Below are positions 5,172 to 33,388 of a stretch of DNA of 35,209 nt, piece by piece. The notes beneath the pieces are model-generated. The model was not told the DNA's origin, searched no databases, and saw only the letters and a list, made by a program, of their open reading frames with translations. This DNA is from an uncultured virus (IMG/VR IMGVR_UViG_3300032087_003848) (taxonomy: Duplodnaviria > Heunggongvirae > Uroviricota > Caudoviricetes). Numbering within the stretch: position 1 is the first letter of the stretch; each line of letters begins with the position of its first letter. The DNA lies in the IMG/VR virus record IMGVR_UViG_3300032087_003848; one strand, given 5' to 3'. A program made the translations under genes and the position numbers.

Positions 5172-5193
5172 CGGCTTCCCCTCCATTTTTTTT
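5156..5193 (+). terminator. Hairpin plus T8 terminator at the convergence of the replication and structural operons
   Basis: TGGAGGGGAGGC-TTAACG-GCTTCCCCTCCA (12-bp stem with one G-U pair) then TTTTTTTT; A-rich run upstream could serve the minus strand. Confidence 0.8.
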
Positions 5194-5237
5194 GGCTTTT
5201 TGAATTCTGATAATCGGTTTCGTTAAAGTCCCTATTA

Positions 5238-6686: not shown

Positions 6687-6687
6687 A

Positions 6688-7056
6688 TTAATCAACCTCG
6701 ACTGCTATAAAAAATTCTATTTCTTCACTTGCACTAAACGGGCCTATTCCTTCAAATGGTATTCTTAACAAAAGATTGTTGTCTGATGTTTCATCAGTTA
6801 TGCAAATTTCTCTTAGAGTCCTTTGTGTAATATTAGAATCACTTCCTTGAATAGTTATTTTGAAATCAACTACGTTCTCTCCCGATTTTACCGATGAAAT
6901 AGATACGCCATGTGCCGCACCGGAACCTCCCAATAAAGGAACATCTAAAGTAGTTTGAGAAGGACTTGAGCCATCCCCACCTGTTCCTACATTTCCTCTA
7001 GTAAAAGTGCTAACTAAATGTTGTGCTAAAATAGACTTTGCTGCATCTGTAATCAT
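6688..7056 (-). CDS. Small baseplate/fibre-attachment protein
   Basis: MITDAAK...VGTG...TTL...LREI resembles fibre N-terminal attachment modules; lies between hub and fibre. Confidence 0.55.
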   Translation of the reverse strand: MITDAAKSILAQHLVSTFTRGNVGTGGDGSSPSQTTLDVPLLGGSGAAHGVSISSVKSGENVVDFKITIQGSDSNITQRTLREICITDETSDNNLLLRIPFEGIGPFSASEEIEFFIAVEVD

Positions 7057-10000: not shown

Positions 10001-13000
10001 CAATCCAATTTCCGTTATCAGTATAAAATCTATACCCTTTTGAATTGTCTAAATTATTTGGGGCAGCATTCAGTGTTATTGAATCAGCACCGTAGTCTGA
10101 ACTCGCTAAAGTAACATCTGAACCTCCCGAATCCACAACTTTGAAAAGATTACCCATAGTATTTTCTCGTTGTAAATCAATAGTTTTTTCTTTATCGGGT
10201 AAATTTTCAGCATCAACTGAATTAAAATGCCAATCTAATGTCATTTCAACTAATCTTAGCATTGTAAATTTTTTAAGATTGTTAATACTAGGTCCACTTA
10301 AAATCTGAGCCAATTGTGTTTCATCATCTGTATTAGATATAGATGAGCCTCCCCCTAAAGATTTAGTGTGTGAAGAAGAAACTTCTGATTCGTTTCCATT
10401 TCTTTGTAATAAAATACTAAAATCACTTAAGTCTCTAGAACCATAATATAGGCTTGTTTTTCTTAAATCAGATTCCGGTAATAAATCACAGGTAGTAAAC
10501 AAAAAATTGCGGGAAACTTTAGAATCAAATTGTTGTAAATTTCTTTCCCAATTTCTTTCTCCCCCAACATATTCATTAGACATATATCTTCTTTTAGGAG
10601 AAGTATTTCCTGTTAGATAGTAGTCCCAAAAATTAGTTCCTCTTGATGGGAAATTTCCTCTTTTCTCAAACATACCTTGCTTTGCATGTAAATCAGTAAA
10701 GTCATCCTTTCGAGAATTAGTTATTGTTGGAACGCTAGTAACATATCCATTTTTAAATCTATAAGCAGAAGCATAGTAATTGGTTTTACTAGATAAATCA
10801 TAATATGCACCTACTTCCTTTTGATTTGTAGTATTGAGTTTCTTTATTGGATATTCATTAAAGACATTGTAGTTTCCTTTCTCTAAATCTAAGAATCTAT
10901 AATATGGTGGCCCATATCTAGTTATGTAATCAGTAGTTACCGTTGATGAAAGAGTATCGTGTATGTGGATATTAAAAGGAAGCAATCCCTTTGTGTTACT
11001 TATTATAGGACTAGCCTTTTGAATTAAAGAAGAAGGTTTATTGATAAAATACATATCAGTAGTATCTTTATCAGTAAGTGCCCATATTTGGTGACTACTA
11101 GAACTTGAAGCACTTATTGTTATTTCTCTATCTAACACCAAATAATGATGAGTTCCGCCCAAATCAGAAACAGACCTAATAAAATAGCCCATAAATGTAA
11201 ATTCACCTGTGGAAACTTCCTTAACGAATACAGGGTCATTTCTTTTAAAGACTCCATCTATTCCTGCGCCTGTGGTTAAATAGGGTCTGTTTGTAAGATA
11301 GTGAGGATAAGATGAACCTGTTATAGTAAGACTTGTATTTGCTAGAGTCATATTATCTGCATCATAAGTATCGTTTTCATCAACCCTTCCTAGATATAGT
11401 CCTACTCTTGGTGCTAATTGAAAAACGGTATTTTTATCCTCAGTTTTTTTAGACATAATTACAAAGTCACTCAAGCCGTTTACTACATCGTCTTCCAAAT
11501 AGTTTCCACTAACGTCATCCTTTAATCTAGATTGAAATGCTCTATCCTTTTTGATATTTGTAATTCCTTCAAAGTTATACCCTATTGCTCCCGTTGTAGT
11601 ATTTTTTGATGAGCCTGCTAATATTCCGCTTTTTGCACCCGAAGAATCAACAGTTATTCCCCCGTTAAAGAACACTCCTTTGTTTGATGCCCCATGTAAT
11701 GAACTAACACTTTCTGAATTTTTAGTGCTAGCCTGTAATGCCTTCTTAAAAGTAAATGGTTTTTTATCTTGTATGTATAATGCTGAAGATGAAGCCAATT
11801 TAACACAACTTCCAAATTCTAAAGTTAATGTGGTGCTATCATGACCACTTTGTATTATACCTATGAAGTTTTTATTTGTGTCAAATATAGCGTCCCCTAC
11901 TGATAGTGATGCTATAACTCCACTAATTGATATGCTTGTGCTATTAATATCCTTATCAGACGATACTGTAACAGAAACACCCCCGCTTGTTTCTGCTGCT
12001 TTAATATTCTGTAAAGGAGAAATAGATGAATGTATTATATCCTGTGTAAATAAAGTATTTTTATTTATTATAGGAGAAACTAATTTGCGTATATCATCTC
12101 TCCCCACTACTTCTATTACGGGTTGACCATTATCAAAATCTTTACTTATTTCCTCAACTGCCCCATTAAATAATTCCAACTCCACTGAACATTTACCAAA
12201 CGCATAGTCTAAACTTGTAAAAGAGTTTACTGTATTTTCCCTATAATGTGTTTTTTCAGGTTCTAATCTAAAACAACTATGAACCCTATCTCCAAATAAA
12301 ACTCTTACAGTTCTGCTAGTATAATTTACATCATTAAATAAAACAACTGCATTATTATACCTAGAATCTGTATAAGAAGATAAAGTAACCCCGTTTATTT
12401 TATATGTAAAAGAATCAACATCAAGAGGTAAAATGTGGCTTGTTAATGCACTTAATCCTGTGTAAGTAACATCAGTATCTAATTCTAAATTTGTCATCAA
12501 AGTTTTTGTTATAGGCGACCACTTTCTTCGATATATTTTATCTCCGGCTGAGAAAGGTGCTGAAGACCTAACCGAAAAAAAAGTTTCACTTTCTAAACGC
12601 CATTTATTATTACAAACTACCGTGTGTAAATTACTAGACGGGGCAGAAATACTATCAACGAAACCTATGTAATTACCTATTTTTATTTCTTCATTTTGTC
12701 CCCATAATACTCTAGCATCATAATCGCCTTGAGTTTTAAACTTTAGATTAGTGCTTCCGCTAGTAATCGAATCTAAAACCAAATCGGTTTCAAACCAACC
12801 ACTCAAATTTATTTCTTCTATTTGTTCTCTAATTACTAAATCGTCTTGAACATTATTTTTTAAAGAAAATACATTTTTTATGTCTAATACTTTACATTCT
12901 GCAATACCCGATTTATCAGAAAGAGAATTAAAAATAACACTCTCAAATACATTGTTTTCTCTATTTAAAATATTAGGCGAATCTTCATAATGAAGGTAGG

Positions 13001-13949
13001 TTGTTGGTCCTGTAAAATCATCTAAGGGTGTATTATCATCTGATTGTCTTCTAGCGTTTAATGCCCAAGTATTGTAACTATTAGGATTAGGTGTAATAGA
13101 ACCCACATCGTAATACAAATTAGTATCTGTCTGATTATCTGCCGTAGGAGTGTCCATTAATTTTCTATTATCTATTATTTCTGCATTTAAAGTAAACTTA
13201 CTTTTATCTATGACTCTAAATTTTGCGCTTTGCTTAGTAGTAAAGGTTGAAATTGTGTTTAAAGTGATAGAAGTAGTAGTAGTCCCTCTAGCATAACATA
13301 ATTTGTATTTTGTATTGTGGTCTAGTTGATTCTTTTTATCTAGCCTGTCATTGTAAAAATGAAATAGAGGTTTAGAAACCATAAGATTGTCATTATGTCT
13401 TGTATCTGCACTTGCGCCTTTTAACAATAAACCGGCAGTTACGGCAACTACTGAAGTATCAGTTATAGTTGGTCCTCTAAATACAATAAATTTAGTGCCT
13501 TTTGGTATTTCATTACCTAACTTAGGAGTAAATTCTAACGCATCACCTAATACATCATCCGTAACTACTTCAGTAATTTTAGCAAAATGATGTTGTTTTA
13601 TTTCATCAGCATAGATTAAAATAAAGTAATCATAAGTAGTTAAGTCCACTGTGTTGAATTGTTGGCCTTCATTATTTTGTTTTCTAAATGCTTTTACTCT
13701 ATAACCGGGCGTATTTTCTAAATTTTCATTATAGTTATCATATGTCCCCGTTGTAATTTTTTCCATAGTGGTAGGTGTGCTATTATCGTTTCTTATTTCA
13801 GCACATATATATTCGTTGCCGGGAGAAACATTGTATCTAATTACGGGATTAGTAGGGCAGTCATGATTAATATTGTTGCCTGTATCTCCCCAAGTAGTAT
13901 TTATTCCTGTGCCGCTATGCACACCCTCTTTCATAACATATAATGACAT
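7053..13949 (-). CDS. Giant (2298 aa) tail tip / baseplate hub protein
   Basis: Hub-like FNGAVEEI...IEVVGRD and C-terminal NEVIVYG...SIKENGKKTLEITD...LKPGDVIEL; downstream of TMP and Dit-like genes. Confidence 0.7.
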   Translation of the reverse strand: MSLYVMKEGVHSGTGINTTWGDTGNNINHDCPTNPVIRYNVSPGNEYICAEIRNDNSTPTTMEKITTGTYDNYNENLENTPGYRVKAFRKQNNEGQQFNTVDLTTYDYFILIYADEIKQHHFAKITEVVTDDVLGDALEFTPKLGNEIPKGTKFIVFRGPTITDTSVVAVTAGLLLKGASADTRHNDNLMVSKPLFHFYNDRLDKKNQLDHNTKYKLCYARGTTTTSITLNTISTFTTKQSAKFRVIDKSKFTLNAEIIDNRKLMDTPTADNQTDTNLYYDVGSITPNPNSYNTWALNARRQSDDNTPLDDFTGPTTYLHYEDSPNILNRENNVFESVIFNSLSDKSGIAECKVLDIKNVFSLKNNVQDDLVIREQIEEINLSGWFETDLVLDSITSGSTNLKFKTQGDYDARVLWGQNEEIKIGNYIGFVDSISAPSSNLHTVVCNNKWRLESETFFSVRSSAPFSAGDKIYRRKWSPITKTLMTNLELDTDVTYTGLSALTSHILPLDVDSFTYKINGVTLSSYTDSRYNNAVVLFNDVNYTSRTVRVLFGDRVHSCFRLEPEKTHYRENTVNSFTSLDYAFGKCSVELELFNGAVEEISKDFDNGQPVIEVVGRDDIRKLVSPIINKNTLFTQDIIHSSISPLQNIKAAETSGGVSVTVSSDKDINSTSISISGVIASLSVGDAIFDTNKNFIGIIQSGHDSTTLTLEFGSCVKLASSSALYIQDKKPFTFKKALQASTKNSESVSSLHGASNKGVFFNGGITVDSSGAKSGILAGSSKNTTTGAIGYNFEGITNIKKDRAFQSRLKDDVSGNYLEDDVVNGLSDFVIMSKKTEDKNTVFQLAPRVGLYLGRVDENDTYDADNMTLANTSLTITGSSYPHYLTNRPYLTTGAGIDGVFKRNDPVFVKEVSTGEFTFMGYFIRSVSDLGGTHHYLVLDREITISASSSSSHQIWALTDKDTTDMYFINKPSSLIQKASPIISNTKGLLPFNIHIHDTLSSTVTTDYITRYGPPYYRFLDLEKGNYNVFNEYPIKKLNTTNQKEVGAYYDLSSKTNYYASAYRFKNGYVTSVPTITNSRKDDFTDLHAKQGMFEKRGNFPSRGTNFWDYYLTGNTSPKRRYMSNEYVGGERNWERNLQQFDSKVSRNFLFTTCDLLPESDLRKTSLYYGSRDLSDFSILLQRNGNESEVSSSHTKSLGGGSSISNTDDETQLAQILSGPSINNLKKFTMLRLVEMTLDWHFNSVDAENLPDKEKTIDLQRENTMGNLFKVVDSGGSDVTLASSDYGADSITLNAAPNNLDNSKGYRFYTDNGNWIGTSFAQTYGATIDFDSASGGEGPYANDDNIKGSLTVIYAIDANAPGLYIQGHGSKDTFVDMFNQPLHMIKGAVFQNELFGRRNGMDGYAEDDDDEYHEDFLPNNITGGSATTAHTFSLTDNIASAEAELFDIALPPVFSVPTSLPTRANLVDSGGTQLKIDTGQAVNNGNNVNLVLTGTPVLTANEQYHLFTEAGHYLGRTTSQTYSSSTVVMERLFLFDKLQTATASGKAINPMRNVQYAEVGDESLIRTDGNTHKSEVLKSISRLQERNTYAQTLPVFLDRYDIEDGGQASVSAGMTSSMIVDHAPLLNNFHAESNVSATHPHKLMLGRKSQQGFAHYTGSGKVSKDGETPFQADGAYMLFKPYLLFTTQDGTNMFTGSHTVKAVGDSTNCKKYSFTVNPDGSGGQLKNIWLNFAPNLTGCYLVSFSGKAYGQNASNEDDFESTDSAAGEKSLRGTGESIPQRIHYVISHTITRTATDTRHEIVIDNAASVSSAYKIMRVAENTFYNFSPKTIKTYCLSPTFTKKPYDEECYSEIKSYKYRNTKGPKTETEDRGNGSKTYENTGHGEGVLSMYIIADPSNKGSGSHLVYRNQTDISGLLDNGDNFTAGMTDGENKLKTDINVVSISSFNTHQLTFTKMAEMVGAVSIGEIFSLKILENIKGDYDIATIGCGANVCFETDDLLNDIFEDEGLEFTKQNLTEYPVFVSPEFRGVSLLTAANSLLSRKDRRISYDKKFILRDNNSALNRPKIKISDRDSKYNIRSVKNGKKLFDSFNEVIVYGRNIKSVRKDIRSIKENGKKTLEITDEDIYTQEEADIRASNLLKVHSKIGETIEVEVSGRGLFVLKPGDVIELEGSFLLAETNKRRGEFIIVEKEYSITGLTKLKLGENNKGLEDRFGELLLENKNIRGLRRTKTFKEPSKSSDFFEEIKIKPIRIKVRKRTTSGTAFTLGFSTPLNTAAATMGFTAGTTIVYSDLLEEQL

Positions 13950-20781: not shown

Positions 20782-22101
20782 CTAACCGAGGAAATATACT
20801 AAGTCTCCCTTCCCCTTGAGAATATCCATAGCCTCTTGCTTTAAAATATCATACTTTTCTTTAGTTGTAATATTAGCACCTGTTTCAGCAATTAATACAC
20901 TTTGGTCATCATGTCTTAGTATTTCTGCTGCTGCTAATTTAGTTGCTGCTTCATGTATAGCAGCAGGGACTCTCCCATTACCTGCTAGATAAGTAACTAT
21001 TACTGAATTCTTTTCATGGTAAGGATAGTCTCTTAAGAAGAATATTCTTCCTTCTGATTTGATAGTCCAATAGGAACCTAGCCTTCTTAGGTCTTCTTTA
21101 TCAGTAAAGTTAGTTAAATCACAAACTGTTGGTATTTTGTCATCAGTTGTAAATGTAGCAGTTCCCGAACCTGTATTTGTTGCTGATGCAGACATAGTAA
21201 CATTAGTCGAATCAACAATAGCAGTAATTGTAGTTCCACTAGGAATATGATTACCTTGTTCTGCTATTTCCATACCTACAATTAATTTAGACGAATCCGC
21301 CACAACAAGATTAGTGCTGCCGTTTGTATGTGTTACTGATTGTTTTATGGTTGCTTTGAGAACACATTCTGCCCCGTCATCACCGGAAAGTAGGGATGAA
21401 ATGAGGACTCTCTTGCCGTTTGCTCTGTCCTTTGCAGCATAGAAAAAATCAGAAATTGACAAACTATTCGGTGTTGATGACAATGATTTCAAAGCCGTAG
21501 CACCTGTAAAGTTAGATGTGCTAGACGGAAATTGTTCATTAACTAGAGAGACTATTTCATCATTCGTAGTTTTAATTCCAAACGTGTTACAGAATTCATC
21601 ATTTCCTAAATCGGAAATGTTATTCTCAGCAACCATTTCAAATGAATCTCCGCTATTAGGTAATTCTAAAATTATAGAATTTAAATCTCTAAAGTTTTCT
21701 TGAAGTAGTATCTTGGCTTGTGCCGATGCTAATTCTTCATATTCGCTACCTTGCCAAACTTGTAAAGATATTACCTTTCTCAATCTTAGTTGGGATAGTT
21801 GAATAAAACCAACATATCCTCCATAATAAGAATGCATTGGTAGTGTCTTGAATTGAAAATCATGGAATTCATTCTTAGTAATAATAGGCCTAAAAGAACG
21901 CTTTACTTTATCATCAATAAGTCCCTCGACTCTTTTGATAATTGCACCGACTTGTGCTAAAGTAGGATAAGTAGTGCTAGCAGTAAAAACAGGAACCTGT
22001 AATAGATTAGCAACTTCAGTTGCATTAGTATAGAATCCTCTTCCGTCTGTATAACTAGGATTTATTTCTGTAAAATCACTTGGCGATACTGTTACTGACA
22101 T
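20782..22101 (-). CDS. Head-tail adaptor (HK97 gp6/SPP1 gp15-like) with large insertion
   Basis: YTNATEVANLL...IKRVEGLIDD at the N-terminus; VIVTYLAG..RVPAAIHEAATKLAA at the C-terminus. Confidence 0.75.
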   Translation of the reverse strand: MSVTVSPSDFTEINPSYTDGRGFYTNATEVANLLQVPVFTASTTYPTLAQVGAIIKRVEGLIDDKVKRSFRPIITKNEFHDFQFKTLPMHSYYGGYVGFIQLSQLRLRKVISLQVWQGSEYEELASAQAKILLQENFRDLNSIILELPNSGDSFEMVAENNISDLGNDEFCNTFGIKTTNDEIVSLVNEQFPSSTSNFTGATALKSLSSTPNSLSISDFFYAAKDRANGKRVLISSLLSGDDGAECVLKATIKQSVTHTNGSTNLVVADSSKLIVGMEIAEQGNHIPSGTTITAIVDSTNVTMSASATNTGSGTATFTTDDKIPTVCDLTNFTDKEDLRRLGSYWTIKSEGRIFFLRDYPYHEKNSVIVTYLAGNGRVPAAIHEAATKLAAAEILRHDDQSVLIAETGANITTKEKYDILKQEAMDILKGKGDLVYFLG

Positions 22102-24233
22102 TATTCAAGTCCTCCTATTAGTCTCTTAATTTTTCTAATGACTTTTCTATATCCACCAATTGTTCTATTTAATTCCCTATTTCTTCTAGGCCTAAGTTGA
22201 ACTGAAGGTATTTCATATGCCTGCATAAGATAGCCTTTAATTGAGATATTAGTATCTTTGAATGATTCATTTATTTCGTCTATTGGAACTTGTCCTGTTT
22301 TATAAGTTATTTTTCCAAACTCGGAAGTGATATCTTCTCCGGTATTTGCATCCAATACTTCTTTTGCCCCTTCTCTTTTAATTCTAGCAATATCTTCTGC
22401 TTGTGTTTCTCGGTAAACTCTTTCGTATTCTTGTTTTTTCTTGGGGGAGAGTTTATCGTATTCCTTATCAGTAATTTGTTTTACTTCAATTCTTTGATAT
22501 TCTTCCTTTTCCTCAGAAGAGAGTTTATCATATTCTCTGTTAGTAATTCGCACACCTTCTCCGTTTTTCCAACCCTCTTTGGTTTTCCAACCTTCGCTTA
22601 CTTCATAGACATCTGCATCTTCATCTGTTATTCCTTGTTCAAATGCGTCTTTCATACTAGAATATAATTCCTTAGTTTTGCCCTTTTTGACTTTAAAAGT
22701 GACATATACTCTTATTCCCATAACTCTATTATATTCTTTAAGTAAATCAGAATCCTTTGCTTCCTTCTTTACCATTTCAGTAATCTTTTTTACTAAAGTT
22801 TCGATTTGGTCATCATTCTCATATGACATGGAAATAGGAGTGCTTTCACCACCTTTTATTGTATATTCAATTGGCTCATCAACTTCTTCCCATTTTTTAT
22901 TGAAATTGTTGTATTTATAATTTAATTTAGCCTTATTTTTTCCTTGCGCTACTTCTTCAAAAGCGGCTGCAATAAAGCCATCAACAGGATATGCTATGGT
23001 GGTAGCAGGTATTCCTACAGCAGTCTCATATTCTTCGTAAGTTAATTTTCTTTCAATTAGTTTTCTTTTATATTTATCTTTTTCTTTGTTAGATAATTTA
23101 TCATAATCTTCATTACTAATTGTTATACTATTATTTTTCTTACTTATCCACATTGTTTCATCTTCTTCTTGCTCAATAAAACCATCAAAAACATCGCTAA
23201 CTTTTTTGTTCTCTGATTTGGCTTGCTTTTCTGCGCCGTCATATTCTTTAGAATATTTATCAAACATTTCTTTAATTCTTCTATTTTTTTCGCTTTCGGA
23301 AACCTTCTCTCTTTCTCCTGCCATTTGACCTAGTTTACCCATTTCAAAAACTTTGGTTTGAATCGTTCTTTTAGATAATTCATCATTCAATTCTTCTATG
23401 AAATCTTCATCTAAACTGAGGTCATATCTCTCTAATGTATCTTCTAATAAATCGAAAGATTGATTTTTAGCCACAGGCTTTACTATATTACCTGACATAT
23501 TAGATAATACAGATGCTCTTTTTTTGCTTATATCTTCTAATTCATCAGTTAAAGGTCTATCCGAACCTAATTGATTTGGATAGTCAATAATTAAATGTGC
23601 TTTATCTTTCAGATTTTTATCCGTCAAAACACTTGTTCCTGTATTTATTTTACCGGTAGGTTCTCCGCCTCTTGTTGATTCTTCTAAAACCAATTCATAA
23701 TCAAACTTAGGAGAGCGAACAATTTTATCAATTTCTTCTTCGCTTAGTTTCTTTTCTAAGTTTTCTTCTTGGCTTCTTAGATAATTTAATCCCTTAAGTC
23801 TTCTAATAACTTCGGGTTTCATTAAATCTTTTAATTTTTTATTTTCAATATATTTTTTATTGGCTTCGTTTTCAACTTGAACATCCTTTGTTTCAAATAC
23901 ATCAACTTCTTTGCCATCAACTTCTTTTGTTCCTGTTTTTGTTGTTTTAGAAGTTCTTCTTCTTTTGATAAAATTACTCCATCCGGGTGATTTTTTTAGC
24001 CATTCTGATAAGTCTTCATCAAGGACTTCGCCTATTACTTGTTTTAAAACCGAGGAAAACTCATCCATTTCTTCATCATCATCTTCTAAAGCATATTGAA
24101 CTGCTAAAATTTTCTTATAGAAAGTGTCATCACTTGGATTACTTAATGCATTTCTAAATTCTATTTTGAAATCGTCTTTGGTTGATGTATCTTCAGTATC
24201 AACATAATTGTCTCCCCATAAAAAATCAACCAT
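22101..24233 (-). CDS. Large charged (E/K/D-rich) hypothetical protein with internal repeats
   Basis: 710-aa ORF, GGTGA SD; three YDKLS repeats. Confidence 0.8.
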   Translation of the reverse strand: MVDFLWGDNYVDTEDTSTKDDFKIEFRNALSNPSDDTFYKKILAVQYALEDDDEEMDEFSSVLKQVIGEVLDEDLSEWLKKSPGWSNFIKRRRTSKTTKTGTKEVDGKEVDVFETKDVQVENEANKKYIENKKLKDLMKPEVIRRLKGLNYLRSQEENLEKKLSEEEIDKIVRSPKFDYELVLEESTRGGEPTGKINTGTSVLTDKNLKDKAHLIIDYPNQLGSDRPLTDELEDISKKRASVLSNMSGNIVKPVAKNQSFDLLEDTLERYDLSLDEDFIEELNDELSKRTIQTKVFEMGKLGQMAGEREKVSESEKNRRIKEMFDKYSKEYDGAEKQAKSENKKVSDVFDGFIEQEEDETMWISKKNNSITISNEDYDKLSNKEKDKYKRKLIERKLTYEEYETAVGIPATTIAYPVDGFIAAAFEEVAQGKNKAKLNYKYNNFNKKWEEVDEPIEYTIKGGESTPISMSYENDDQIETLVKKITEMVKKEAKDSDLLKEYNRVMGIRVYVTFKVKKGKTKELYSSMKDAFEQGITDEDADVYEVSEGWKTKEGWKNGEGVRITNREYDKLSSEEKEEYQRIEVKQITDKEYDKLSPKKKQEYERVYRETQAEDIARIKREGAKEVLDANTGEDITSEFGKITYKTGQVPIDEINESFKDTNISIKGYLMQAYEIPSVQLRPRRNRELNRTIGGYRKVIRKIKRLIGGLE
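22419..23127 (-). repeat. Three protein-level repeats I[ST]xx[ED]YDKLSxxxKxxYxR
   Basis: ISNEDYDKLSNKEKDKYKR, ITNREYDKLSSEEKEEYQR, ITDKEYDKLSPKKKQEYER. Confidence 0.8.
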
Positions 24234-24244
24234 TTAGGCTCACC

Positions 24245-24898
24245 TCACATTAACCATTTAGCCCATGCAGCACCTTTTTGTATCGCTGAACCTAAACCTA
24301 AGCCTGCTTTTGGTGGCTCATAACTCATTTGTCCTGTTTGTGGGTCTATCCAATATGGCCTACCATATCCATCTGTTCCATTAGGAGGAACAGGATAACC
24401 TGTGCCATTATTCATAGCACCCTGCATTTGATTATATTGTTGCATATTACCTGTTACTCCTGCAATAGCAGCACCGGCAGCAATTTGTTGTGTCTGTCCT
24501 CCACCAAATCCTTGAGATTCTAGATATTGTTGCTTTGCCATCTTTCTTTGATTTACTACTTCTGCATTAATAGCGGATTGAAGTAGCCTTTGAATATCCA
24601 AATCAATATTCTCTTGAGTAATTCTTTCGTATTCTCTCATAGCGTCAGCATCAATTTGTATTGAATTTCCTGTCATTGTAAATTTTAATTTACTTAGCAT
24701 TTGGGAAACAACTCTCTCAATTACATCTTCCATTAGTTTTTCCAAAGCAGTTAAGAAATGTTCTCCATGATACTGAAAGAATTCCTCAACATGATTATCT
24801 TGTAGTGATAACAGATTATTCATTGATTTGAATTGTTGGTCCCCTTGTGCTTGCACTGCTCCTAAAACAGTGCCGTTACTTGTTCCTAATAATCCCAT
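24245..24898 (-). CDS. Helical, Q/G-rich protein with WW-like motif and C-terminal amphipathic helix
   Basis: DGYGRPYWIDPQTGQMSYEPP; ends LGSAIQKGAAWAKWLM. Confidence 0.8.
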   Translation of the reverse strand: MGLLGTSNGTVLGAVQAQGDQQFKSMNNLLSLQDNHVEEFFQYHGEHFLTALEKLMEDVIERVVSQMLSKLKFTMTGNSIQIDADAMREYERITQENIDLDIQRLLQSAINAEVVNQRKMAKQQYLESQGFGGGQTQQIAAGAAIAGVTGNMQQYNQMQGAMNNGTGYPVPPNGTDGYGRPYWIDPQTGQMSYEPPKAGLGLGSAIQKGAAWAKWLM

Positions 24899-24900
24899 AA

Positions 24901-25560
24901 TTATTCCTCTTTAGTTTCTTCTCTAGTAGGTATCTTTACTCCTTCGTTAATCATTAAGTAATTTAGCCTATCAGTGAGTATATTTATCTCACCAACAATC
25001 TCAATTACTTCGTTAGTAGCACTCCTATTATCTCCTAATGAGGGTGGCTTTATTAAATAACCGCTTGCAGTAAGTGTTGCTATATTCTCTTTAGTTAAAT
25101 GGGTCAAAGGACCACTTTTCAGAACCTTTGGCATCTTAGGAATATATTTAGCAAACTCTAAGCCATGCTTATCCGCAAGTATTGTCTGTTGTAGCATTTC
25201 TAATTGCATAAACATAGCAGCATGTTTAGGACAATATGTTCCTGCTAATGGCCTACCTTTCACTACATTATCTAGTGGGATAGGAGGTCTTAATGAATCT
25301 CCGGGTTCCCATATATGATGAAAACCACAAACTACGCATCTATCTTTTAAATTAAATTTTTTACCATATTTTAATCCCAAAAATTTCTTTGGTTCGGGCT
25401 TTAAAACGGCAACTAATTCTTTTAATTGTTTTTTAGGTTTAATTGCTACAAACTTGTATTCCATTATAGAACCGCTTGCTCTTGCTGCTCTCAACGGAGA
25501 TAAGAATGCAGTTGGTAACATATTTGGATTCTGTCCTATAATATTTGGTTGCTGATACAT
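24901..25560 (-). CDS. Putative Zn-finger protein
   Basis: RCVVCG...TYCPKH (CxxC/CxxH); C-terminal heptad-like helix. Confidence 0.75.
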   Translation of the reverse strand: MYQQPNIIGQNPNMLPTAFLSPLRAARASGSIMEYKFVAIKPKKQLKELVAVLKPEPKKFLGLKYGKKFNLKDRCVVCGFHHIWEPGDSLRPPIPLDNVVKGRPLAGTYCPKHAAMFMQLEMLQQTILADKHGLEFAKYIPKMPKVLKSGPLTHLTKENIATLTASGYLIKPPSLGDNRSATNEVIEIVGEINILTDRLNYLMINEGVKIPTREETKEE

Positions 25561-25590
25561 CTTTTATTCCTCAGTTTTGTTTTATTTTTC

Positions 25591-25926
25591 TTAGATAAAA
25601 TGATACTCATTTACTCCTTTCGTTCCAAGACGGTTTCCTTTATTATCAAAAATAATTTTGTTTTTTCTTTTCACTTCTAATAAATTATTTTCTCTTAATA
25701 TTTTAGTGGTAACATTTTTAATACGGTTCAAGTCCACTTTTCCCCCGCCCTGATTTGCATGAGAAGTATGTTTTTTGGCATAAGACTGATTTATTTCTTC
25801 TAGTAGTTGTAAGTATTCATCTGCACTTAAAACCTCACCTTTCATTTCTTTACCTTTGGTTAAAACAATCTCTTTAAGAAAATCATAATTTAATCTCTTT
25901 GCTGCTTTTAATACTTCTTCCCACAT
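25591..25926 (-). CDS. Basic hypothetical protein starting MWEEVLKA
   Basis: ATG 25926 just after the GTPase stop; K-rich. Confidence 0.65.
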   Translation of the reverse strand: MWEEVLKAAKRLNYDFLKEIVLTKGKEMKGEVLSADEYLQLLEEINQSYAKKHTSHANQGGGKVDLNRIKNVTTKILRENNLLEVKRKNKIIFDNKGNRLGTKGVNEYHFI

Positions 25927-25931
25927 AGTAA

Positions 25932-26600
25932 TCAATAATCCTTTATCATCGTCATTACGCCTCTATAAACCATTTCGGGTTCTGATTTTGCTGAAACTAT
26001 ATACTTAAAACAAGGTATTCCTTTATCGTTTAATTGTCTCATTCCATACTTAAACGGTTCAAAAATTTCATGTTTGTCTATTGTTTGTCCTTCTTTTAGT
26101 GGATATTTTTCTCCCCATATGTCATATTTATTTGCCCATATGCCCACTGCAATAGGATAATCTGAATCTCTTTTTTTTCTGTTAGTGGGCCAAGTATTTG
26201 CACATATTGTATCAACTAAAAACTTCCATGCTACTTGATGGTCTAAGTTAGAAGAATTATCTAAGTGCCTATGGTCTATCATAAAAATCACATACTTTAC
26301 TCTTCTTTTTTGCATGTCTTTAACCCATTCTTTCCAATAGATTGCTTCTCCGCCAACGTCTGCACTTCTAACAGTATGTGAGTCTCCGTCTATTTTAACT
26401 GTTTTTCTAGAGGCCCTATGTAATCCTACTGTTCTTTCATTTATTTGAGGCACTTCTCCCCTTGTTCTTAACTGATTACTTAACGTTGTTTTACCAACCA
26501 TTGTTGCACCATACACACCAAAATTAATTGCATGAACCTTTCTATAAAAACTAATGAATGCTTCTCCTACCAAAATGGCAAAGCCTGTCATCATTGACAA
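25932..26600 (-). CDS. Arf/Sar1-like small GTPase with N-terminal hydrophobic helix
   Basis: G1 GATMVGKT, G2 RTVG, G3 DVGGE, G4 NKYD, G5 SAK; TTG 26600 six nt after GGAGGT. Confidence 0.9.
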   Translation of the reverse strand: MSMMTGFAILVGEAFISFYRKVHAINFGVYGATMVGKTTLSNQLRTRGEVPQINERTVGLHRASRKTVKIDGDSHTVRSADVGGEAIYWKEWVKDMQKRRVKYVIFMIDHRHLDNSSNLDHQVAWKFLVDTICANTWPTNRKKRDSDYPIAVGIWANKYDIWGEKYPLKEGQTIDKHEIFEPFKYGMRQLNDKGIPCFKYIVSAKSEPEMVYRGVMTMIKDY

Positions 26601-26602
26601 GA

Positions 26603-26818
26603 CTATACCTCCCAACTGTGCCAAAAGGTATCTAATATCCAACCTAGAATATTAATATCGAAGACACCCATAATGTTTCCAATAAAGAAAGAGGATATGG
26701 CAGCACAAGTGCCCCAAAACCATGCTCTCATTTTTAGAAATAAAATATCTGCTGAATGCGCTCTTTGCTGATTATATGCATAATCAGAATCAGAAAACCC
26801 TAGAAAATCAGAAAACAT
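26603..26818 (-). CDS. Small membrane protein, 71 aa
   Basis: Hydrophobic AWFWGTCAAISSFFIGNIMGVF and INILGWIL. Confidence 0.8.
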   Translation of the reverse strand: MFSDFLGFSDSDYAYNQQRAHSADILFLKMRAWFWGTCAAISSFFIGNIMGVFDINILGWILDTFWHSWEV

Positions 26819-26827
26819 TTAACCGCC

Positions 26828-27223
26828 TCACTGAAGAGTAGCGGCTAAAAATTCACTTCCAACAGTGTTATCATCAGTTGTCTCAATGTTAGAATACTGC
26901 GGGAAAGTCATTCCGCCATATTGCTTTGCGCTTTCCTGCATCTTTCTCAACTGTTGCTCATCTCTTGCTTTCCTTTCCCAATAGGCCGCAATCTTTCTAT
27001 CAAGTAGCCACATCTCTATTTTATCATTTAGTGCTAAATCAAATAGGGCTTTCATTACCATAATAGCACCTATCGTTCCTAAACCAAATAATACGGAGTG
27101 TGCTAAAGGACCATATGGAAATCCTAAACCTATCTGTGCATAAACCATAACGTTAGCACCACTTAATGCACCAACGAAAAGTATAGTCATAACTAATCTA
27201 GTATCTTGATTCAATGCAGGCAT
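26828..27223 (-). CDS. Two-TM membrane protein with charged C-terminal tail
   Basis: GAGGTGA SD; LVMTILFVGALSGANVMVYA and SVLFGLGTIGAIMVMKALF. Confidence 0.85.
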   Translation of the reverse strand: MPALNQDTRLVMTILFVGALSGANVMVYAQIGLGFPYGPLAHSVLFGLGTIGAIMVMKALFDLALNDKIEMWLLDRKIAAYWERKARDEQQLRKMQESAKQYGGMTFPQYSNIETTDDNTVGSEFLAATLQ

Positions 27224-28295: not shown

Positions 28296-29651
28296 TCACA
28301 GAAGGTTTGTGACTTTGCCTTGTCCTTTCCAATACGAGCAACCCAATTCACCAATTGTTCGGTAAAGAGCCTTGTTTCCGAGGGTTCCGACACCGAATGG
28401 GTTTCCGTTGCTAATACCATCCTCAAAGTATTGAGTTGGTTTCATAACAGATAGCCATAGATGGTCTGTATCTAGGAACAACATATCGCTAATACAATCG
28501 GCATTTGCACCTGTGGAAGCCATAGCAGCAACAGGAATTAGAGGAATATCGTAGTAAGTTGATACTCTAAATCCTACTTCTTGACCTTTAACACCACGAA
28601 CACCATTTACAGTTGGAACAATTTCTTTTCTATCCATAAATCTCTCTTGTGCTTGTAGCAAATCAGAGATAGTTTGTAGTGTATCATATCCTGTTAGAAT
28701 AACCTTTGGTGAACCACCCGCAACACGAATTAGTCTTAGCATTTCATTAAGAACAGTTAGTGTTAGTTGGCGAGCATCTCCACTAGCATAAGTATCACCA
28801 AAAGTAACCTGCGAATCTAGGAAAGAAGCAGAATTTCGGTTTGATGAAAACAAATTAGTTACTTCAGCAGCAGTCGCACTTGATATTAGATTTGCAGCAG
28901 CCATAGCATCTAATTCTCCTTTAGAAGAAACAATCTTGTTTAGAGATGTATAGTTTCTCTCAATTGTATCAACAGTGACTGAACTTGAAACTGTTGAACC
29001 TGCTGAATAGAATTCTAGAGGCATAACTAGCATAGCATTCTGAACCTCAGCATGGTGCTTACCCATATCTTCACGCATTTGCGCTCTAATATCGCCAATT
29101 CCATCATCAATTTGTGCCATTTCCATAGCCAATTCGCTGAATTCAAATTGATGTGCAATAATTTTAGGACTTGTGAACAATTGCTCATACTTTGGCGCAA
29201 TAGAAGCCAAACCATCAGCAACAGTATCTAGACCTGCATTTTCAGGAACACCACCAATAATATCTGCTCTAGGAGAAGTTGAACCAATGTTTGCAGCATC
29301 TTTTGTTCCTTCAACATCCAATGCTAGGAAGTTACCACTACCACCGGCAGGTCTTTCTGACAATACTCTCCAACCGCTAGAAGTATATGGCCTCTTAGCA
29401 ATTACTGAAAGAGCATTACATTCACGGTTTAGCATAGACCAAACTTTTTGTCCGTAAACTTGATTGTATAATGCTCCTAGAGAAGAAGCAGCAGTAGTCC
29501 CACTACCAACTCCTAGAGAAACATCATGGCCTGTATGAATACCTGCCACTGCACCAACTTGCTTAAGCAATTGGTTGTTTAGTCCCGCATTTGCGCCCAT
29601 TCCGTAAGTATTAGCCTCTAAATCTGCAATTGTGTTAATATATCCACTCAT
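28296..29651 (-). CDS. Major capsid protein (HK97 fold)
   Basis: 451 aa after protease-scaffold; GGSPKVILTG, YYDIPLIP, MLFLDTDHL, YRTIGEL. Confidence 0.9.
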   Translation of the reverse strand: MSGYINTIADLEANTYGMGANAGLNNQLLKQVGAVAGIHTGHDVSLGVGSGTTAASSLGALYNQVYGQKVWSMLNRECNALSVIAKRPYTSSGWRVLSERPAGGSGNFLALDVEGTKDAANIGSTSPRADIIGGVPENAGLDTVADGLASIAPKYEQLFTSPKIIAHQFEFSELAMEMAQIDDGIGDIRAQMREDMGKHHAEVQNAMLVMPLEFYSAGSTVSSSVTVDTIERNYTSLNKIVSSKGELDAMAAANLISSATAAEVTNLFSSNRNSASFLDSQVTFGDTYASGDARQLTLTVLNEMLRLIRVAGGSPKVILTGYDTLQTISDLLQAQERFMDRKEIVPTVNGVRGVKGQEVGFRVSTYYDIPLIPVAAMASTGANADCISDMLFLDTDHLWLSVMKPTQYFEDGISNGNPFGVGTLGNKALYRTIGELGCSYWKGQGKVTNLL

Positions 29652-29652
29652 C

Positions 29653-30849
29653 TTAAATTCCTCCTACCATCTTGTGAATGTCGTTCCAATCCATTTGTGC
29701 AACTTCATCCAATGAAGGGAGTTTAATTTCAGACTCTTCTTGAGCCTTTAGAATAGTCTCTTTCTCAGCAGTTAGAGACTTTCTTAGTTGTGTAAATTCT
29801 TCCTTTAGGGAAGCAATTTCTGACTTTGCATCGTAATTTGCTTTAGCGATTGCATCTGTTCTTGTTGTTGTTTCAGCCTTAAATCGGGCTTCAAACTGCT
29901 TTTGAAGATTATCGTAAGCCAACTTTTCTAGTTGTTCTTGACGGAATGCTTCGTAAGCCTTCTCAATGTTTCCTACTGACAAATCAAGTGTTTCTAATTC
30001 TTCGTTGTTAAATGCCTTAACAACCGGCAAATCAGAAGCCTTTGGGTTTCCGTTGTCAATTACAACTCTATCCGCAGGTTCGCCGATTTCAACGCCTGCG
30101 CCATCTAGAGTTGAAAGTAAAGCCTTTGCTTCTCTTTCTCTATCGTCGGACATATCCATCATTTCCTCTTCGTCATCTTTCATTTCCATAGTATCGGCTC
30201 TTTCCATTTCATCCATGTATTCACCCATACCTTTCTCTTCTTCTTCTTCTTCTTTTCTTAGCATATTGACTTCCTCCATTAGAGTGTCCAATTCTGCTAA
30301 TGCTTTTTCTAGTTTACTCATTTTTTTTGCCTCCTTATCTTGCTTTAAAATATCAAATTTCGCTTCCGGGTTTATTCCTTTTTCACATATTGTTACTTCA
30401 TGCAATTCTAGTTTGCTTATTTCATTGTAATCTCCTAACTCCGGGTGATTTTTCTTTACTTTATGTATTGCTTGCCCCCCAATGCTAAATGACCTCAATG
30501 AACCTTTTCTTATGCCTCGATTTATTTCTTTGGCTTTTTCTATATCATCCCTTAATTTAATCACTACAAAAAATCCTACATCATCAACTTCAGTTTTCCA
30601 TAGTTTTCCGTTCTTATCTCGATACGATTTAATTACCTCTCCGACTTGAACATTTGAATGGTTTGTCATTACATTCCTAAATTTGGGATTCTCCATGTAT
30701 TTTTCGACTGCATCTTCTAATGCTTTGAGTGTAATTAAATCATTTTGCTTATCAACGATTTCGATGCTTGCATATCCTCCAATCATTAAATCGTCACTTT
30801 TGAGTATTCTGAAATCATCATTATGATTAGCCATAATAGCAGATGCCAT
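29653..30849 (-). CDS. Prohead maturation protease fused to an acidic coiled-coil scaffold
   Basis: GYAS..VDKQND, catalytic NHS, SFSIGG, HEVTIC..GINPEA; C-terminal half is an E/K coiled coil. Confidence 0.9.
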   Translation of the reverse strand: MASAIMANHNDDFRILKSDDLMIGGYASIEIVDKQNDLITLKALEDAVEKYMENPKFRNVMTNHSNVQVGEVIKSYRDKNGKLWKTEVDDVGFFVVIKLRDDIEKAKEINRGIRKGSLRSFSIGGQAIHKVKKNHPELGDYNEISKLELHEVTICEKGINPEAKFDILKQDKEAKKMSKLEKALAELDTLMEEVNMLRKEEEEEEKGMGEYMDEMERADTMEMKDDEEEMMDMSDDREREAKALLSTLDGAGVEIGEPADRVVIDNGNPKASDLPVVKAFNNEELETLDLSVGNIEKAYEAFRQEQLEKLAYDNLQKQFEARFKAETTTRTDAIAKANYDAKSEIASLKEEFTQLRKSLTAEKETILKAQEESEIKLPSLDEVAQMDWNDIHKMVGGI

Positions 30850-30889: not shown

Positions 30890-33388
30890 TCACTGTGGAA
30901 TTTTAATTTTTGCATACTTATCTTCGTAAATATCCCAAATACCATCATCTGTTTTACTATCCACAGGTTCCTGTTCATATCCTGTCCACGCCAACCACAT
31001 CTTTTTACCCTTTACAGGCAAATATCTAATATGGAGTTTAGTCTCAAACTTGTTTCCATCTAAGAAATATTCATGATATCCATCCCTCTGAACACCTAAT
31101 TCAACAGTCCCACTATCAATTACCTTTTCTTTTTCTATATTAGTTGCCACTTGTGCAGGATATTTTCCCGCAGCACCAAACAAATCAAACAATTCTTCTT
31201 CGTTTTCTAAATCAATAGTCCAATTAATAGTATCTTCACCTAATTTAATTGATAGAGTAATGTTGTCGTCTTCTCTAGCATATATTTTGAAAGGACCGCT
31301 TCTTTTTTCTTCGGGAGTTTTATACTCTTTTTTAATTTCTTCAGTCTCTTTTTGGACTTTATCATAACTCATGAAGAGTTTTTTAGTTTGAGGATTGTAA
31401 TCTATACCATCTCTATTATCAGCCCATTCAACCAAACCATCTTTTCCATCTTTTACAATGTCTTTATACTCAGCAACATTTTCTTTCACTAGATAGTCAT
31501 GCACTTCTTTTAATGTTCTAGGCCCATTATCTGTCAAATAACGAATAATTGCATTTGCCAAAACACCCTGTTTAGTTTTCATTATCTCTTGCACTTGTTC
31601 TTTCCAAATGTCAATATCCAACATAGCATTCTTAGACATCAAATTGTGTTCTTCAAAGAAAGTAAAACCACTTACGTCGAACTTTAGTATCGCTTCACCG
31701 TGAATATGGTCCGTTATTTTGAATCCTTTTGTTAACGCAGTCACATCATAATTTAGAGACTTCTTAGTATCTTGGGCTAAGAATTCTAAAGTAACCACTT
31801 TATCAGGCATTTCGACTTCCGGTATTTCTATTACCTTTGCAGAATATAGAGTAAATCTTTCACCGGATTGCTTTACTTCATCAACCTTTACTCTAACTAT
31901 ATCTCCTACATTTGCTGAAGTTTTAGTATTAAGAGTCTTACCGACGTTCATGTATTTTTTACCGTCAATTTCTTCTATAAATTTACTTTCCTCATCAGTC
32001 GGACCAACATCAACACCAACAGTATAAGAATATAAATTGCTTTTTGTTTTCTTTTTATCCAAAACAATAACATCTAAATCAACAAATTTTTTCCATTTAA
32101 TCCACTTAGGGTTCTTTCTTGTTCCTAAATAATAAGTTGAAGTAGCATCTTTAATTACTACTCCTTCAGCAGTAGGCATATTCATAATTGTCTTAGAATA
32201 TTCTTCTATATCTTTTAGACTATCTGCCATTCTAGTATCTCTTTTAGATGGGAATACTAAATACTCAGAAGAATGAGATGAATAGTTGTTGAATAAGGTA
32301 GTAATTCTATTAGACAATTCTTCATCAAGAAGAGTTTGTTCTTCGTGTCGCATAATATCAAAAACATGGCATTTTAATTTAGCATCTTTGTATTTTCCTT
32401 TGAATACATGAGCAATAGTATCTGCCCTATGTAAAGAATCTTCACCACTAAATAGAATCAATTCAGCATCTAAAATACAGTCGCCAAAGTGTTTTTTCTT
32501 TAATTCATCAACTATGTCAGAACATTTATCTGTTATATTCTTTTTGTTATAGGAATAAACTTTAACTGATTTATCAAACTTATGAAGTTGCACTCTCATG
32601 CCATCATATTTTTCTTGAACAACCCAATCACCACTGAAACCCTTTAATTCATTGATATCTTCAATATCAAATATTCTATACATCGGTTTGTTAGGAATAA
32701 TGAAATCACTAATTGACTTCTCTTCTTCTGATTTTTTCATATCAATATCAACCAATTCTTCCCATTCTTTTTCTTCATGTTGGGAAAAGAAGACTAACTG
32801 CAATAGGTCTAAGGCTGCCTTTACTTTAGATTCCACTTTCTTTGAATCTTTTCCATCCCCATAATGCTCAATAATATACAGTGCTATGTCGTCTTCCTCT
32901 AGGTCAAGACCCATAAGACCCTCGGTAATTGAGTCCGGTTCCATGTCTTTTATTGATAATGTTTCAGCAGTTAGAGCATTGTTGTGATTCCTTAGAGCAT
33001 AATGAACAAATTTAACCATAGATTCGGGATTTGTCATTAACTCTTCAAGAACATTACCTTTGAATCTTTTAGCGAACGGGTCTTCGACTAATTTAGAATT
33101 ATATCTTAGAAGTTTTATTTTTTCAAATAAGTTTTTTGCTTCGGTTGTCTTAACATCATTAACGCTATTATTTTCTAAATCATCTTCATCAATGAAATTT
33201 TTCATTTCTTTTCCGGCAGCATCTAATTCTTCGTATGATTCTTTAATTAATTTAACTGCTGCTCTCCAACGACTCCCATATTCTTTCGGGTCATGTCGTG
33301 CGGATAAATAGGCAACCCTTGTCTTTTCAAAAAGACGCATTATTTCAACTGATGGTTGTCTATCTTTTTCGATAGAACCTAATTTCAT
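30890..33388 (-). CDS. lig: ATP-dependent DNA ligase with long N- and C-terminal extensions
   Basis: Motif I EKYDGMR, III LDAEL, IIIa FDIM, IV EGVVIK, V WIKWK, then OB fold. Confidence 0.92.
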   Translation of the reverse strand: MKLGSIEKDRQPSVEIMRLFEKTRVAYLSARHDPKEYGSRWRAAVKLIKESYEELDAAGKEMKNFIDEDDLENNSVNDVKTTEAKNLFEKIKLLRYNSKLVEDPFAKRFKGNVLEELMTNPESMVKFVHYALRNHNNALTAETLSIKDMEPDSITEGLMGLDLEEDDIALYIIEHYGDGKDSKKVESKVKAALDLLQLVFFSQHEEKEWEELVDIDMKKSEEEKSISDFIIPNKPMYRIFDIEDINELKGFSGDWVVQEKYDGMRVQLHKFDKSVKVYSYNKKNITDKCSDIVDELKKKHFGDCILDAELILFSGEDSLHRADTIAHVFKGKYKDAKLKCHVFDIMRHEEQTLLDEELSNRITTLFNNYSSHSSEYLVFPSKRDTRMADSLKDIEEYSKTIMNMPTAEGVVIKDATSTYYLGTRKNPKWIKWKKFVDLDVIVLDKKKTKSNLYSYTVGVDVGPTDEESKFIEEIDGKKYMNVGKTLNTKTSANVGDIVRVKVDEVKQSGERFTLYSAKVIEIPEVEMPDKVVTLEFLAQDTKKSLNYDVTALTKGFKITDHIHGEAILKFDVSGFTFFEEHNLMSKNAMLDIDIWKEQVQEIMKTKQGVLANAIIRYLTDNGPRTLKEVHDYLVKENVAEYKDIVKDGKDGLVEWADNRDGIDYNPQTKKLFMSYDKVQKETEEIKKEYKTPEEKRSGPFKIYAREDDNITLSIKLGEDTINWTIDLENEEELFDLFGAAGKYPAQVATNIEKEKVIDSGTVELGVQRDGYHEYFLDGNKFETKLHIRYLPVKGKKMWLAWTGYEQEPVDSKTDDGIWDIYEDKYAKIKIPQ

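Follow-up and report, generated by a model that had tools for sequence, protein, structure and literature searches.

An Arf-like GTPase and its four neighbours as a conserved unit of the magrovirus virion gene region, with a possible role in virion release

The closest working analogue of the gene set considered here is the ArvA-ArvB-ArvC system (OapA/B/C) of Euryarchaeota, in which an Arf-like GTPase with an N-terminal membrane helix stands beside a cysteine-rich (zinc) protein and a further partner and acts on the archaeal cytoplasmic membrane; in Haloferax, ArvA and its Zn-ribbon partner are reported to drive membrane vesiculation (PMC10927574). A comparable arrangement was found at positions 24245-27223 of a 35,209-nucleotide (nt) contig of an uncultured magrovirus (Magrovirales; IMG/VR IMGVR_UViG_3300032087_003848), the whole of which is called the window below. 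Five genes of this region (A, B, C, E and F) likewise combine an Arf-like GTPase having a predicted N-terminal membrane helix with a Cys-rich protein and further partners, a likeness to ArvA drawn by description alone. The viral unit differs in that it also has a pair of integral membrane proteins and a helical, Q-rich protein, and in being viral and part of a presumed late operon. OapB (PF09846), DUF2072 and DUF2073 of Pfam had no match at E-value up to 1 among the 12 open reading frames (ORFs) of the region, and PF09846 was absent from the nearest virus record, the control being positive in Haloferax.

Other known systems resemble parts of the unit. Arf, Arl and Sar1 GTPases and SRbeta have in common with the viral GTPase an N-terminal membrane helix and, in part, a switch-II signature (D-x-G-G-[Q/H/E] with Trp at +11), whereas the window GTPase differs from Arf, Arl and Sar1 in having Glu for the catalytic Gln/His and no Gly2 for myristoylation. 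Giant eukaryotic viruses also encode small GTPases (Rab, Ras and Ran), and these provide the nearest viral structures in BFVD, where none of the best 50 rows listed names a tailed virus (giant eukaryotic viruses, with one row unnamed). Unlike the GTPase of the unit, giant-virus GTPases are recent captures from eukaryotic hosts, with neither an N-terminal membrane helix nor conserved membrane-protein neighbours. The holin cassettes of tailed phages recall A and B in being late genes for small proteins with one or two transmembrane (TM) segments and charged C-termini. They differ in that the unit matches no holin or endolysin family and its proteins are highly conserved, not fast-evolving; moreover, the GTPase and the two soluble partners have no counterpart in known holin cassettes.

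As a set, the five genes are without a described equivalent, in agreement with a preliminary description of the region, made from its letters alone, which had proposed a six-gene module and knew of no characterised equivalent in tailed viruses. No mention of a magrovirus GTPase or of the five-gene unit was found in the literature searched: GTP is not mentioned in the main texts of the magrovirus literature checked, nor GTPase in a survey of archaeal tailed viruses; the supplements of PMC5434244 and PMC11706807 contain no GTPase term (one PMC5434244 file excepted); titles and abstracts of the Poseidoniales literature listed name no viral GTPase; and 'Arf-like' does not occur in the tailed-virus and archaeal literature listed.

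All six ORFs of the proposed module are indeed present, co-oriented and tightly packed, with gaps or overlaps of -4 to +30 nt. Named in 5' to 3' order on the minus strand, with protein lengths in amino acids (aa), they are:

26828..27223, minus strand: gene A, a membrane protein of 131 aa that has two hydrophobic helices and ends in a charged, coiled-coil-like tail
26603..26818, minus strand: gene B, a 71-aa single-pass membrane protein with one hydrophobic segment (Kyte-Doolittle 1.68)
25932..26600, minus strand: gene C, an Arf-like small GTPase of 222 aa, most likely starting at the TTG at 26600 (the longest ORF reaches 26642)
25591..25926, minus strand: gene D, a 111-aa basic ORF that starts with MWEEVLK
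24901..25560, minus strand: gene E, a 219-aa soluble protein with the pattern CxxC ... GR...TYCPxH
24245..24898, minus strand: gene F, a Q-rich protein of 217 aa (helical core, Q/G-rich middle, WW-like stretch, amphipathic C-terminal tail)

Genes A, B, C, E and F are read here as one virus-specific magrovirus unit, which would encode a late, GTP-switched membrane complex, most likely for virion release. The probability of this reading is put at roughly 0.4.

The conservation of the unit is the main evidence. Lineage 1, that of the window, was sampled as 80 loci out of 258 viral contigs encoding a close relative of the GTPase. By tblastn, A and B were each found in 79 of these loci, C in all 80, E in 77 and F in 73; the order never varied, and every absence corresponds to a locus whose end falls short of the gene: L047 begins with the GTPase, L002, L012 and L032 stop after it, and L046, L052, L057 and L079 stop in or after E. 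Synteny across magroviruses, by which the preliminary description had proposed to judge its module, was therefore found, and strongly, for all of the six except D: the other five co-occur in fixed order. When 15 genes were compared over the loci other than L001 and L002, the GTPase had the highest median identity (85.5%), followed by a 170-aa protein encoded downstream of F (81.2%), F (80.2%), A (77.3%), the protease (76.9%), B (71.4%), the capsid protein (70.9%) and E (67.2%); three small genes on the head side reached 38-56%, and a 710-aa protein encoded next to F 28.6%.

Three far lineages, with GTPases at 29-36% identity, extend this picture. The relative P0133, which is 31-37% identical to the window GTPase, led to 80 further loci on contigs of up to 118 kb, in which tblastn with 16 window proteins recovered the GTPase alone, plus E once. 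By its ORFs, lineage 2 has the same layout, beginning with a protein of 170-220 aa (hydrophobic helices and a Q/K-rich tail) and a TM protein of 78-100 aa, followed by the GTPase, an occasional insert of 56-73 aa, a YCPxH protein of 293-347 aa, a Q-rich protein of 190-227 aa and a 2-TM protein of 77-90 aa. In hhalign comparisons of lineages 1 and 2, the GTPases were joined at a probability of 99.9% and E was homologous to the gene after the lineage-2 GTPase (94%, E-value 1.4e-7); F and its counterpart reached 43.7% (E-value 2.4e-4), and all 25 off-diagonal pairs stayed at or below 11%. Of the 84 loci of lineages 2 and 3, 78 had sufficient flank, and in 74 of these hidden Markov models (HMMs) of lineage 2 recovered the order A-B-C-E-F. 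The other four are the loci of lineage 3, and in the two of them whose ORFs were read (L161 and L164) ORFs of the same size and kind are in place; A of lineage 3 matches the lineage-2 HMM at E-values of 3.6e-13 to 1.2e-16. Lineage 4, found on metagenome contigs, shows A, B, an acidic insert, the GTPase, E, F and a 2-TM gene.

What surrounds the unit is different in each case. Its flanks are head genes and the 710-aa protein in the window, and a protein of ~2300 aa or, in lineage 3, a chaperonin-like protein of 511-553 aa (named by eye only) elsewhere; BLASTP of the flank proteins between lineages gave nothing at E-value up to 0.01. Since the order is kept while the flanks differ, the five genes move as a block, and this is the strongest argument for their working together.

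Two kinds of additional ORF were observed in the distant lineages. An extra gene of 77-103 aa with two hydrophobic helices lies directly after F in lineages 2 and 4 and has no counterpart in the lineage of the window; by HMM it was found in 80 of the 84 loci of lineages 2 and 3, all 80 being of lineage 2. ORFs of 60-66 aa between the GTPase and E of lineage 2 resemble, by eye, DNA-binding domains of the AbrB/SpoVT type. Examples are:

L084:10214-10456: extra 2-TM gene after F
L176:8221-8532: extra 2-TM gene after F
L129:7536-7718: AbrB/SpoVT-like ORF between GTPase and E
L141:8740-8940: AbrB/SpoVT-like ORF between GTPase and E

The preliminary description took the product of gene C for a complete Arf/Sar-like GTPase, and rightly so: G1 to G5 are present (G1 GATMVGKT, T71, G3 DVGGE, G4 NKYD, G5 SAK), and profile and fold searches favour Arf/Sar/SRbeta. 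Its homologues have 217-226 aa and start with MS(V/L)MTGF, and the TTG at 26600, two bases past the stop of B, is preceded by GGGAGG; because it fits both the homologues and this upstream sequence, it is most likely the start, rather than 26642. The P-loop pattern GxxxxGK[ST] is satisfied, with G45, G50 and K51 invariant in the 22 and in the 18 aligned members, and T71, D95, G98, N171, K172 and D174 are invariant across 18 magrovirus GTPases. In Arf proteins the switch-II signature reads D-[VIL]-G-G-[Q/H], with a catalytic Gln or His, and a Trp follows 11 residues on. The Trp at +11 (W106) is invariant across the 18 magrovirus GTPases. At the catalytic position most of lineage 1 has Glu (DVGGE in the window), whereas lineages 2 and 4 have Gln and lineage 3 has His; the motifs seen in other lineages are DIGGQ, DIGGH, DVPGQ and DLGGA.

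A model of the GTPase (AF2, alignment of 22 relatives) has a predicted local distance difference test (pLDDT) score of 92.6 and the canonical G-domain order b1-a1-b2-b3-a2-b4-a3-b5-a4-b6-a5 after a long N-terminal helix (3-36). Foldseek returned at least 500 PDB matches at E-value up to 0.001 with this model, Rab, Arf1 and G-alpha chains among them. In VIA-align, Arf6 came first (Z 18.3, root-mean-square deviation 2.5, 162 aligned), followed by a Loki Rag-like GTPase (17.9), mimivirus Rab (17.9), SRbeta (17.8), Sar1 (17.7) and Gi-alpha (17.2), so that Rab and Rag-like proteins tie with the Arf family within ~1 Z unit of Arf6.

Single-sequence searches, by comparison, hardly see the window GTPase, as MMR_HSR1 of Pfam gave 20.9 bits (cut-off 21.9) and TIGR00231 gave 21 bits (cut-off 42.5); it had no match to Pfam Arf (PF00025) at E-value up to 1, nor did any of five magrovirus members scanned match that family at E-value up to 0.001. 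In the PDB, a profile of close relatives reached Ras at an E-value of 0.15. When the profile covered the whole family, the top match was 8oun (8.5e-14), taken here as an Asgard Arf because the codes 8OUN and 8OUM appear in literature on Asgard Arf GTPases, and Arl3 came next (2.6e-11). Since some distant members in that profile score above the Pfam Arf cut-off on their own (6 of the 17 proteins scanned), the search was repeated with the 18 magrovirus sequences only, which returned 8oun at 6.1e-6, Arl8A and Arl10 at 5e-4 to 8e-4, Rab33B at 1.7e-3 and SRbeta at 7.7e-3. RecA concatemers, matched six times in the magrovirus-only search, were set aside as sharing the P-loop alone. Among the more distant family members, 6 of 12 pass Pfam Arf at 24.5-57.2 bits (cut-off 22.3). 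Arf/Sar-like is accordingly the best label for sequence and predicted fold, though the window protein stays below the cut-off of Pfam Arf.

All 18 GTPases have an N-terminus of 22-35 residues that is hydrophobic or amphipathic, with a KD18 hydropathy of 0.80-2.03 and a hydrophobic moment of at most 0.56. In lineage 1 it resembles a TM segment (KD18 1.5-2.0), in the other lineages it is more amphipathic, and the N-terminal helix is predicted to serve as a membrane anchor.

The family is also narrowly distributed. The window GTPase shares 76% identity with gp088 of Poseidoniales virus YSH_150918, the exemplar of Aoguangviridae in the order Magrovirales (PMC10768690). HMMER over 1.84 billion representatives gave 78 proteins at E-value up to 0.001, mostly fragments with a handful of full-length distant relatives; fused or longer forms were absent at E-value up to 1e-5, which is weak evidence, and tblastn against 50,697 phage records gave no match. 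The distant relatives P0159, P0132 and P0138 were not found in viral contigs, and a cluster look-up for distant relatives led to short contigs only. A scan of 185,579 species genomes yielded two loci, both on short, viral-looking contigs of one metagenome-assembled genome (MAG) labelled Maricaulis. Judging from its sequence relationships, the GTPase represents a new branch of the Arf-like GTPases, one that is narrow and carried by viruses. The two contigs just mentioned (L165 and L166; 12.2 and 28.9 kb) are magrovirus-like, and the label Maricaulis sp. of their MAG probably reflects a binning error rather than a bacterial host.

Gene A, the first of the conserved unit, and gene B were described beforehand as a 2-TM and a small TM protein, and hydropathy agrees. 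The two hydrophobic segments of A average 1.88 and 1.85 on the Kyte-Doolittle scale over 19 residues; B has its single segment and a conserved N-terminal stretch, SD.DYAYN.QRAHS. Neither matches Pfam, PHROGs or NCBIfam. The proteins at the A position in lineages 2-4 are of the same kind (1-2 TM segments and a Q/K-rich tail), and the B position is taken in other lineages by a TM protein of 69-100 aa.

The expected CxxC/CxxH pattern of E was located at C75-x-x-C78 (CVVC) and C110-P-K-H113 (YCPKH), together with an invariant Gly-Arg, and the Cys/His motif is a probable metal site. E has 974 relatives, all of them unnamed or 'hypothetical' among the 120 matches listed; it had no Pfam family at E-value up to 0.1 and no match in a PDB profile search at E-value up to 10, and its AF2 model (31 sequences, pLDDT 50.6) was too poor for a fold search. 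The motif reads YAPDF instead of YCPxH in lineage 4 (L176:6802-7533) and YCPQA, with the His lost, in one lineage-3 virus (L164:6714-7490). A predicted complex of the GTPase (residues 15-236) with E, GTP and Mg scored 0.00, a value that was obtained without controls and carries no weight either way.

For F, the helical core (approximately residues 27-126, with the motif ITQENID), the Q-rich composition and the amphipathic C-terminal tail (AIQKGAAWAKWLM) noted earlier were all found, and ITQENID also occurs in lineage 3. The WW-like motif fared less well: the stretch scores 14.8 bits against Pfam WW (cut-off 26.9), covers profile positions 10-31 only (the second half of a WW domain), and, though conserved within lineage 1, is missing in lineages 2-3. 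By profile, F had three chance-level matches only in the PDB, and Atlas look-ups of E and F led to unnamed viral clusters only (scores 0.80-0.84).

Gene D stands apart. Its ATG at 25926 lies five bases past the GTPase stop, and its basic charge (K+R 21 vs D+E 15) is as first described; its membership of the module is not upheld, since by tblastn it is present in 2 of the 80 related loci, both from the same virus and identical to the window. No Pfam, PHROG or NCBIfam family reaches cut-off. On the sequence evidence D is an unrelated variable cassette in an insertion hot spot, outside the conserved unit. It is the sole MWxx[IVL]LK match in the window, and 27 ORFs of at least 50 aa starting with MWxx[I/V/L]LK were found in lineage-1 loci, with 17 distinct junctions and ~ten unrelated bodies. 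Twelve of them lie between B and C, 14 after C and one after the 439-aa gene, so that two hot spots, the B-C and the C-E space, flank the GTPase gene. Those listed by position include:

L015:6687-7247: MWxxILK cassette, lineage 1
L026:5445-5996: MWxxILK cassette, lineage 1
L046:6702-7160: MWxxILK cassette, lineage 1
L066:3814-4317 and 4994-5533: MWxxILK cassettes, lineage 1
L072:5465-6001 and 6675-7241: MWxxILK cassettes, lineage 1
L074:5056-5691 and 5706-5999: MWxxILK cassettes, lineage 1

These genes have only the N-terminal heptapeptide MWxx(I/V/L)LK in common, and their proteins show nothing above Pfam cut-offs. Codons 5-7 vary synonymously, which points to a constraint on the peptide and not on a DNA site. 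A search of five near-complete genomes for the DNA pattern gave 12 gene-strand matches, against 2 for a reversed control, most of them at a distance from the GTPase; this makes the tag a genome-wide feature and no mark of the unit, and a specific link between GTPase and cassettes was dropped. By analogy with the capsid-targeting sequence of T4 internal proteins, MWxxILK could be a targeting or processing tag.

How might the five proteins act? Expression together with the virion genes would follow from the nearly gapless minus-strand run that extends from the capsid gene to the tail genes. The Arf/Sar/SRbeta-like GTPase would sit on the membrane through its hydrophobic N-terminal helix, with A and B beside it in the membrane, their tails predicted to be cytoplasmic, and with E (usually having the probable Cys/His metal site) and F (helical and Q-rich) as soluble partners. 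The preliminary description had cast the neighbours as receptor, GAP/GEF and effector of a machine for lysis timing, budding or membrane-anchored assembly; these partner roles are conjecture, and a function of that sort is suggested by membrane anchoring and position in the late operon. Late in infection the five would act jointly at the inner face of the host membrane, and the complex would time or drive the disruption or remodelling of that membrane, letting finished virions out. Virion release is favoured because the unit appears membrane-bound and late, because viruses of this group are thought lytic (PMC10768690) and no lysis gene is visible in the window, and because ArvA with its zinc partner deforms archaeal membranes. 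The earlier remark that no endolysin is visible was confirmed, since scans of 33 window ORFs (against Pfam and PHROGs, among others) gave no match to a holin or endolysin family, nor to any lysozyme, amidase or peptidase family other than that of the prohead protease.

The egress machinery of archaeal tailed viruses has been called 'completely uncharacterized' (PMC10791045), and the unit is a concrete, testable candidate for this open question. A bolder and less probable version is that it is the long-sought exit machine of archaeal tailed viruses, in which an Arf-like GTPase, held at the membrane by A and B and controlled by E and F, would use a GTP timer to vesiculate or rupture the host membrane once virions are ready. 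If true, this would be a lysis principle unrelated to holin-endolysin lysis and akin to eukaryotic coat-driven budding and archaeal ArvA vesiculation. The finding also places Arf-like membrane GTPases, so characteristic of membrane traffic in eukaryotes and Asgard archaea, among the core genes of prokaryotic tailed viruses. Magroviruses are reported to be some of the most abundant surface-ocean viruses (PMC11706807).

Several points weigh against a role in virion release. Joint action is deduced from block conservation and late expression from gene position; the host is uncultured. Holin, endolysin, OapB and OapC families (Pfam, PHROG and NCBIfam) match none of the five proteins, and holins are usually far less conserved than A and B. 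Between lineages 1 and 2, hhalign probabilities of 3.5% for A and 1.5% for B do not establish homology. The residue at the catalytic switch-II position differs among lineages (E, Q, H or A), and the loss of the Cys/His site of E in lineage 4, and of its His in one lineage-3 virus, makes a catalytic zinc-finger role doubtful. Finally, F weakly resembles phrog_14074 ('virion structural protein'; E-value 6.9e-4), a similarity seen in 4 of 18 F members (best E-value 6.5e-4) that would fit a structural role.

This last point leads to assembly instead of exit, with the unit as a membrane-tethered platform or GTP-dependent chaperone for the head, the tail or head-tail joining. The location is suggestive, as the unit of the window lies within a morphogenetic operon, with the capsid gene on one side and tail genes on the other, and its very high conservation is like that of core morphogenesis genes; the chaperonin-like gene adjoining the lineage-3 unit, identified by eye only, and the weak PHROG match of F would also suit such a role. 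The preliminary description had placed the genes between head and neck genes, which holds for the capsid gene and protease upstream, while the genes for the 710-, 439- and 170-aa proteins downstream are without an assigned role. It had also stated that none of the genes resembles a standard head or tail part: none of the partners matches a known head or tail family, the lone weak match of F being the only qualification. No head, tail or scaffold family reaches cut-off, and the order of the unit is constant while its structural neighbours change between lineages. To our knowledge, no tailed virus needs a membrane GTPase for assembly. An assembly role is on balance unlikely, though it is the rival that survives best.

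Manipulation of the host is rather less likely. The GTPase, which as a viral copy of a host-type membrane switch would be a classic mimic, might serve in superinfection exclusion, block or hijack an ArvA-like vesiculating pathway, or alter division or envelope traffic; Arf-like GTPases are reported to control vesicle formation in Euryarchaeota (PMC10927574). Strong conservation would fit a conserved host target, and variable accessory cassettes cluster on both flanks of the GTPase, yet MWxxILK cassettes also occur elsewhere in the genome. Takeover genes, moreover, are usually early and lie outside the structural operon. Nor is a recent host origin of the GTPase visible, as a close relative is absent from the species genomes scanned, save for the two viral contigs of one MAG. 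Even if the role were assembly or host manipulation, the unit would mark Magrovirales and add a new branch of Arf-like GTPases.

It is improbable that the proteins are packaged and delivered at infection, with a channel of A/B type through the membrane and a GTPase that uses host GTP for DNA entry. In some podoviruses, P22 and T7 for example, hydrophobic proteins whose genes lie between those for head and tail serve as ejection proteins, and the weak match of F to a virion structural protein could be read in the same way; in a long-tailed virus, however, the products of the tube-like and tape-measure-like genes normally do the job of DNA entry, no similarity to ejection protein families was found, and we know of no packaged small GTPase. 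That the five genes are mere neighbours of unrelated function held together by operon inertia is very improbable, given that their order is kept over four lineages with GTPases 29-36% identical while all examined flank genes changed, and that the junctions on either side of the GTPase repeatedly take foreign cassettes with the set unbroken.

Virion release by a GTP-switched complex is kept as the preferred reading, and the remaining genes of the window are given here as its setting. The G+C content of the window is ~30-40%. The protease, the capsid gene and three small genes lie directly upstream of the six-gene run and the tail genes downstream; genes for an ERCC4 nuclease and an RNase H-like protein are on the plus-strand side. 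The minus-strand genes outside the run are:

30890-33388, minus strand: DNA-ligase-domain protein of 832 aa, first of the minus-strand gene series
29653-30849, minus strand: prohead protease (family scan)
28296-29651, minus strand: HK97-type capsid protein (SU10_MCP 28.6 bits; phrog_24667 E-value 3.6e-20)
between the capsid gene and gene A, minus strand: three small genes without a named family (ORF list)
directly downstream of gene F, minus strand: genes for proteins of 710, 439 and 170 aa, role not assigned
22101-24233, minus strand: the 710-aa protein of this group, Lys/Glu-rich with internal repeats (…EYDKLS..EK.EYQR…)
after the 170-aa gene, minus strand: tail-tube-like, tape-measure-like and 2298-aa tail proteins
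7053-13949, minus strand: the 2298-aa tail-associated giant protein (ORF)

Neither the 710-aa nor the 2298-aa protein had a family match above threshold, and the former is highly variable, with 21-34% identity in most loci where it was detected. The 832-aa protein, inside the structural operon, has its ATP-dependent DNA ligase domain at residues 248-433, with ~250 aa N-terminal and ~400 aa C-terminal to the domain without assignment; a ligase within the structural block has been described for magrovirus groups A and B (PMC5434244).

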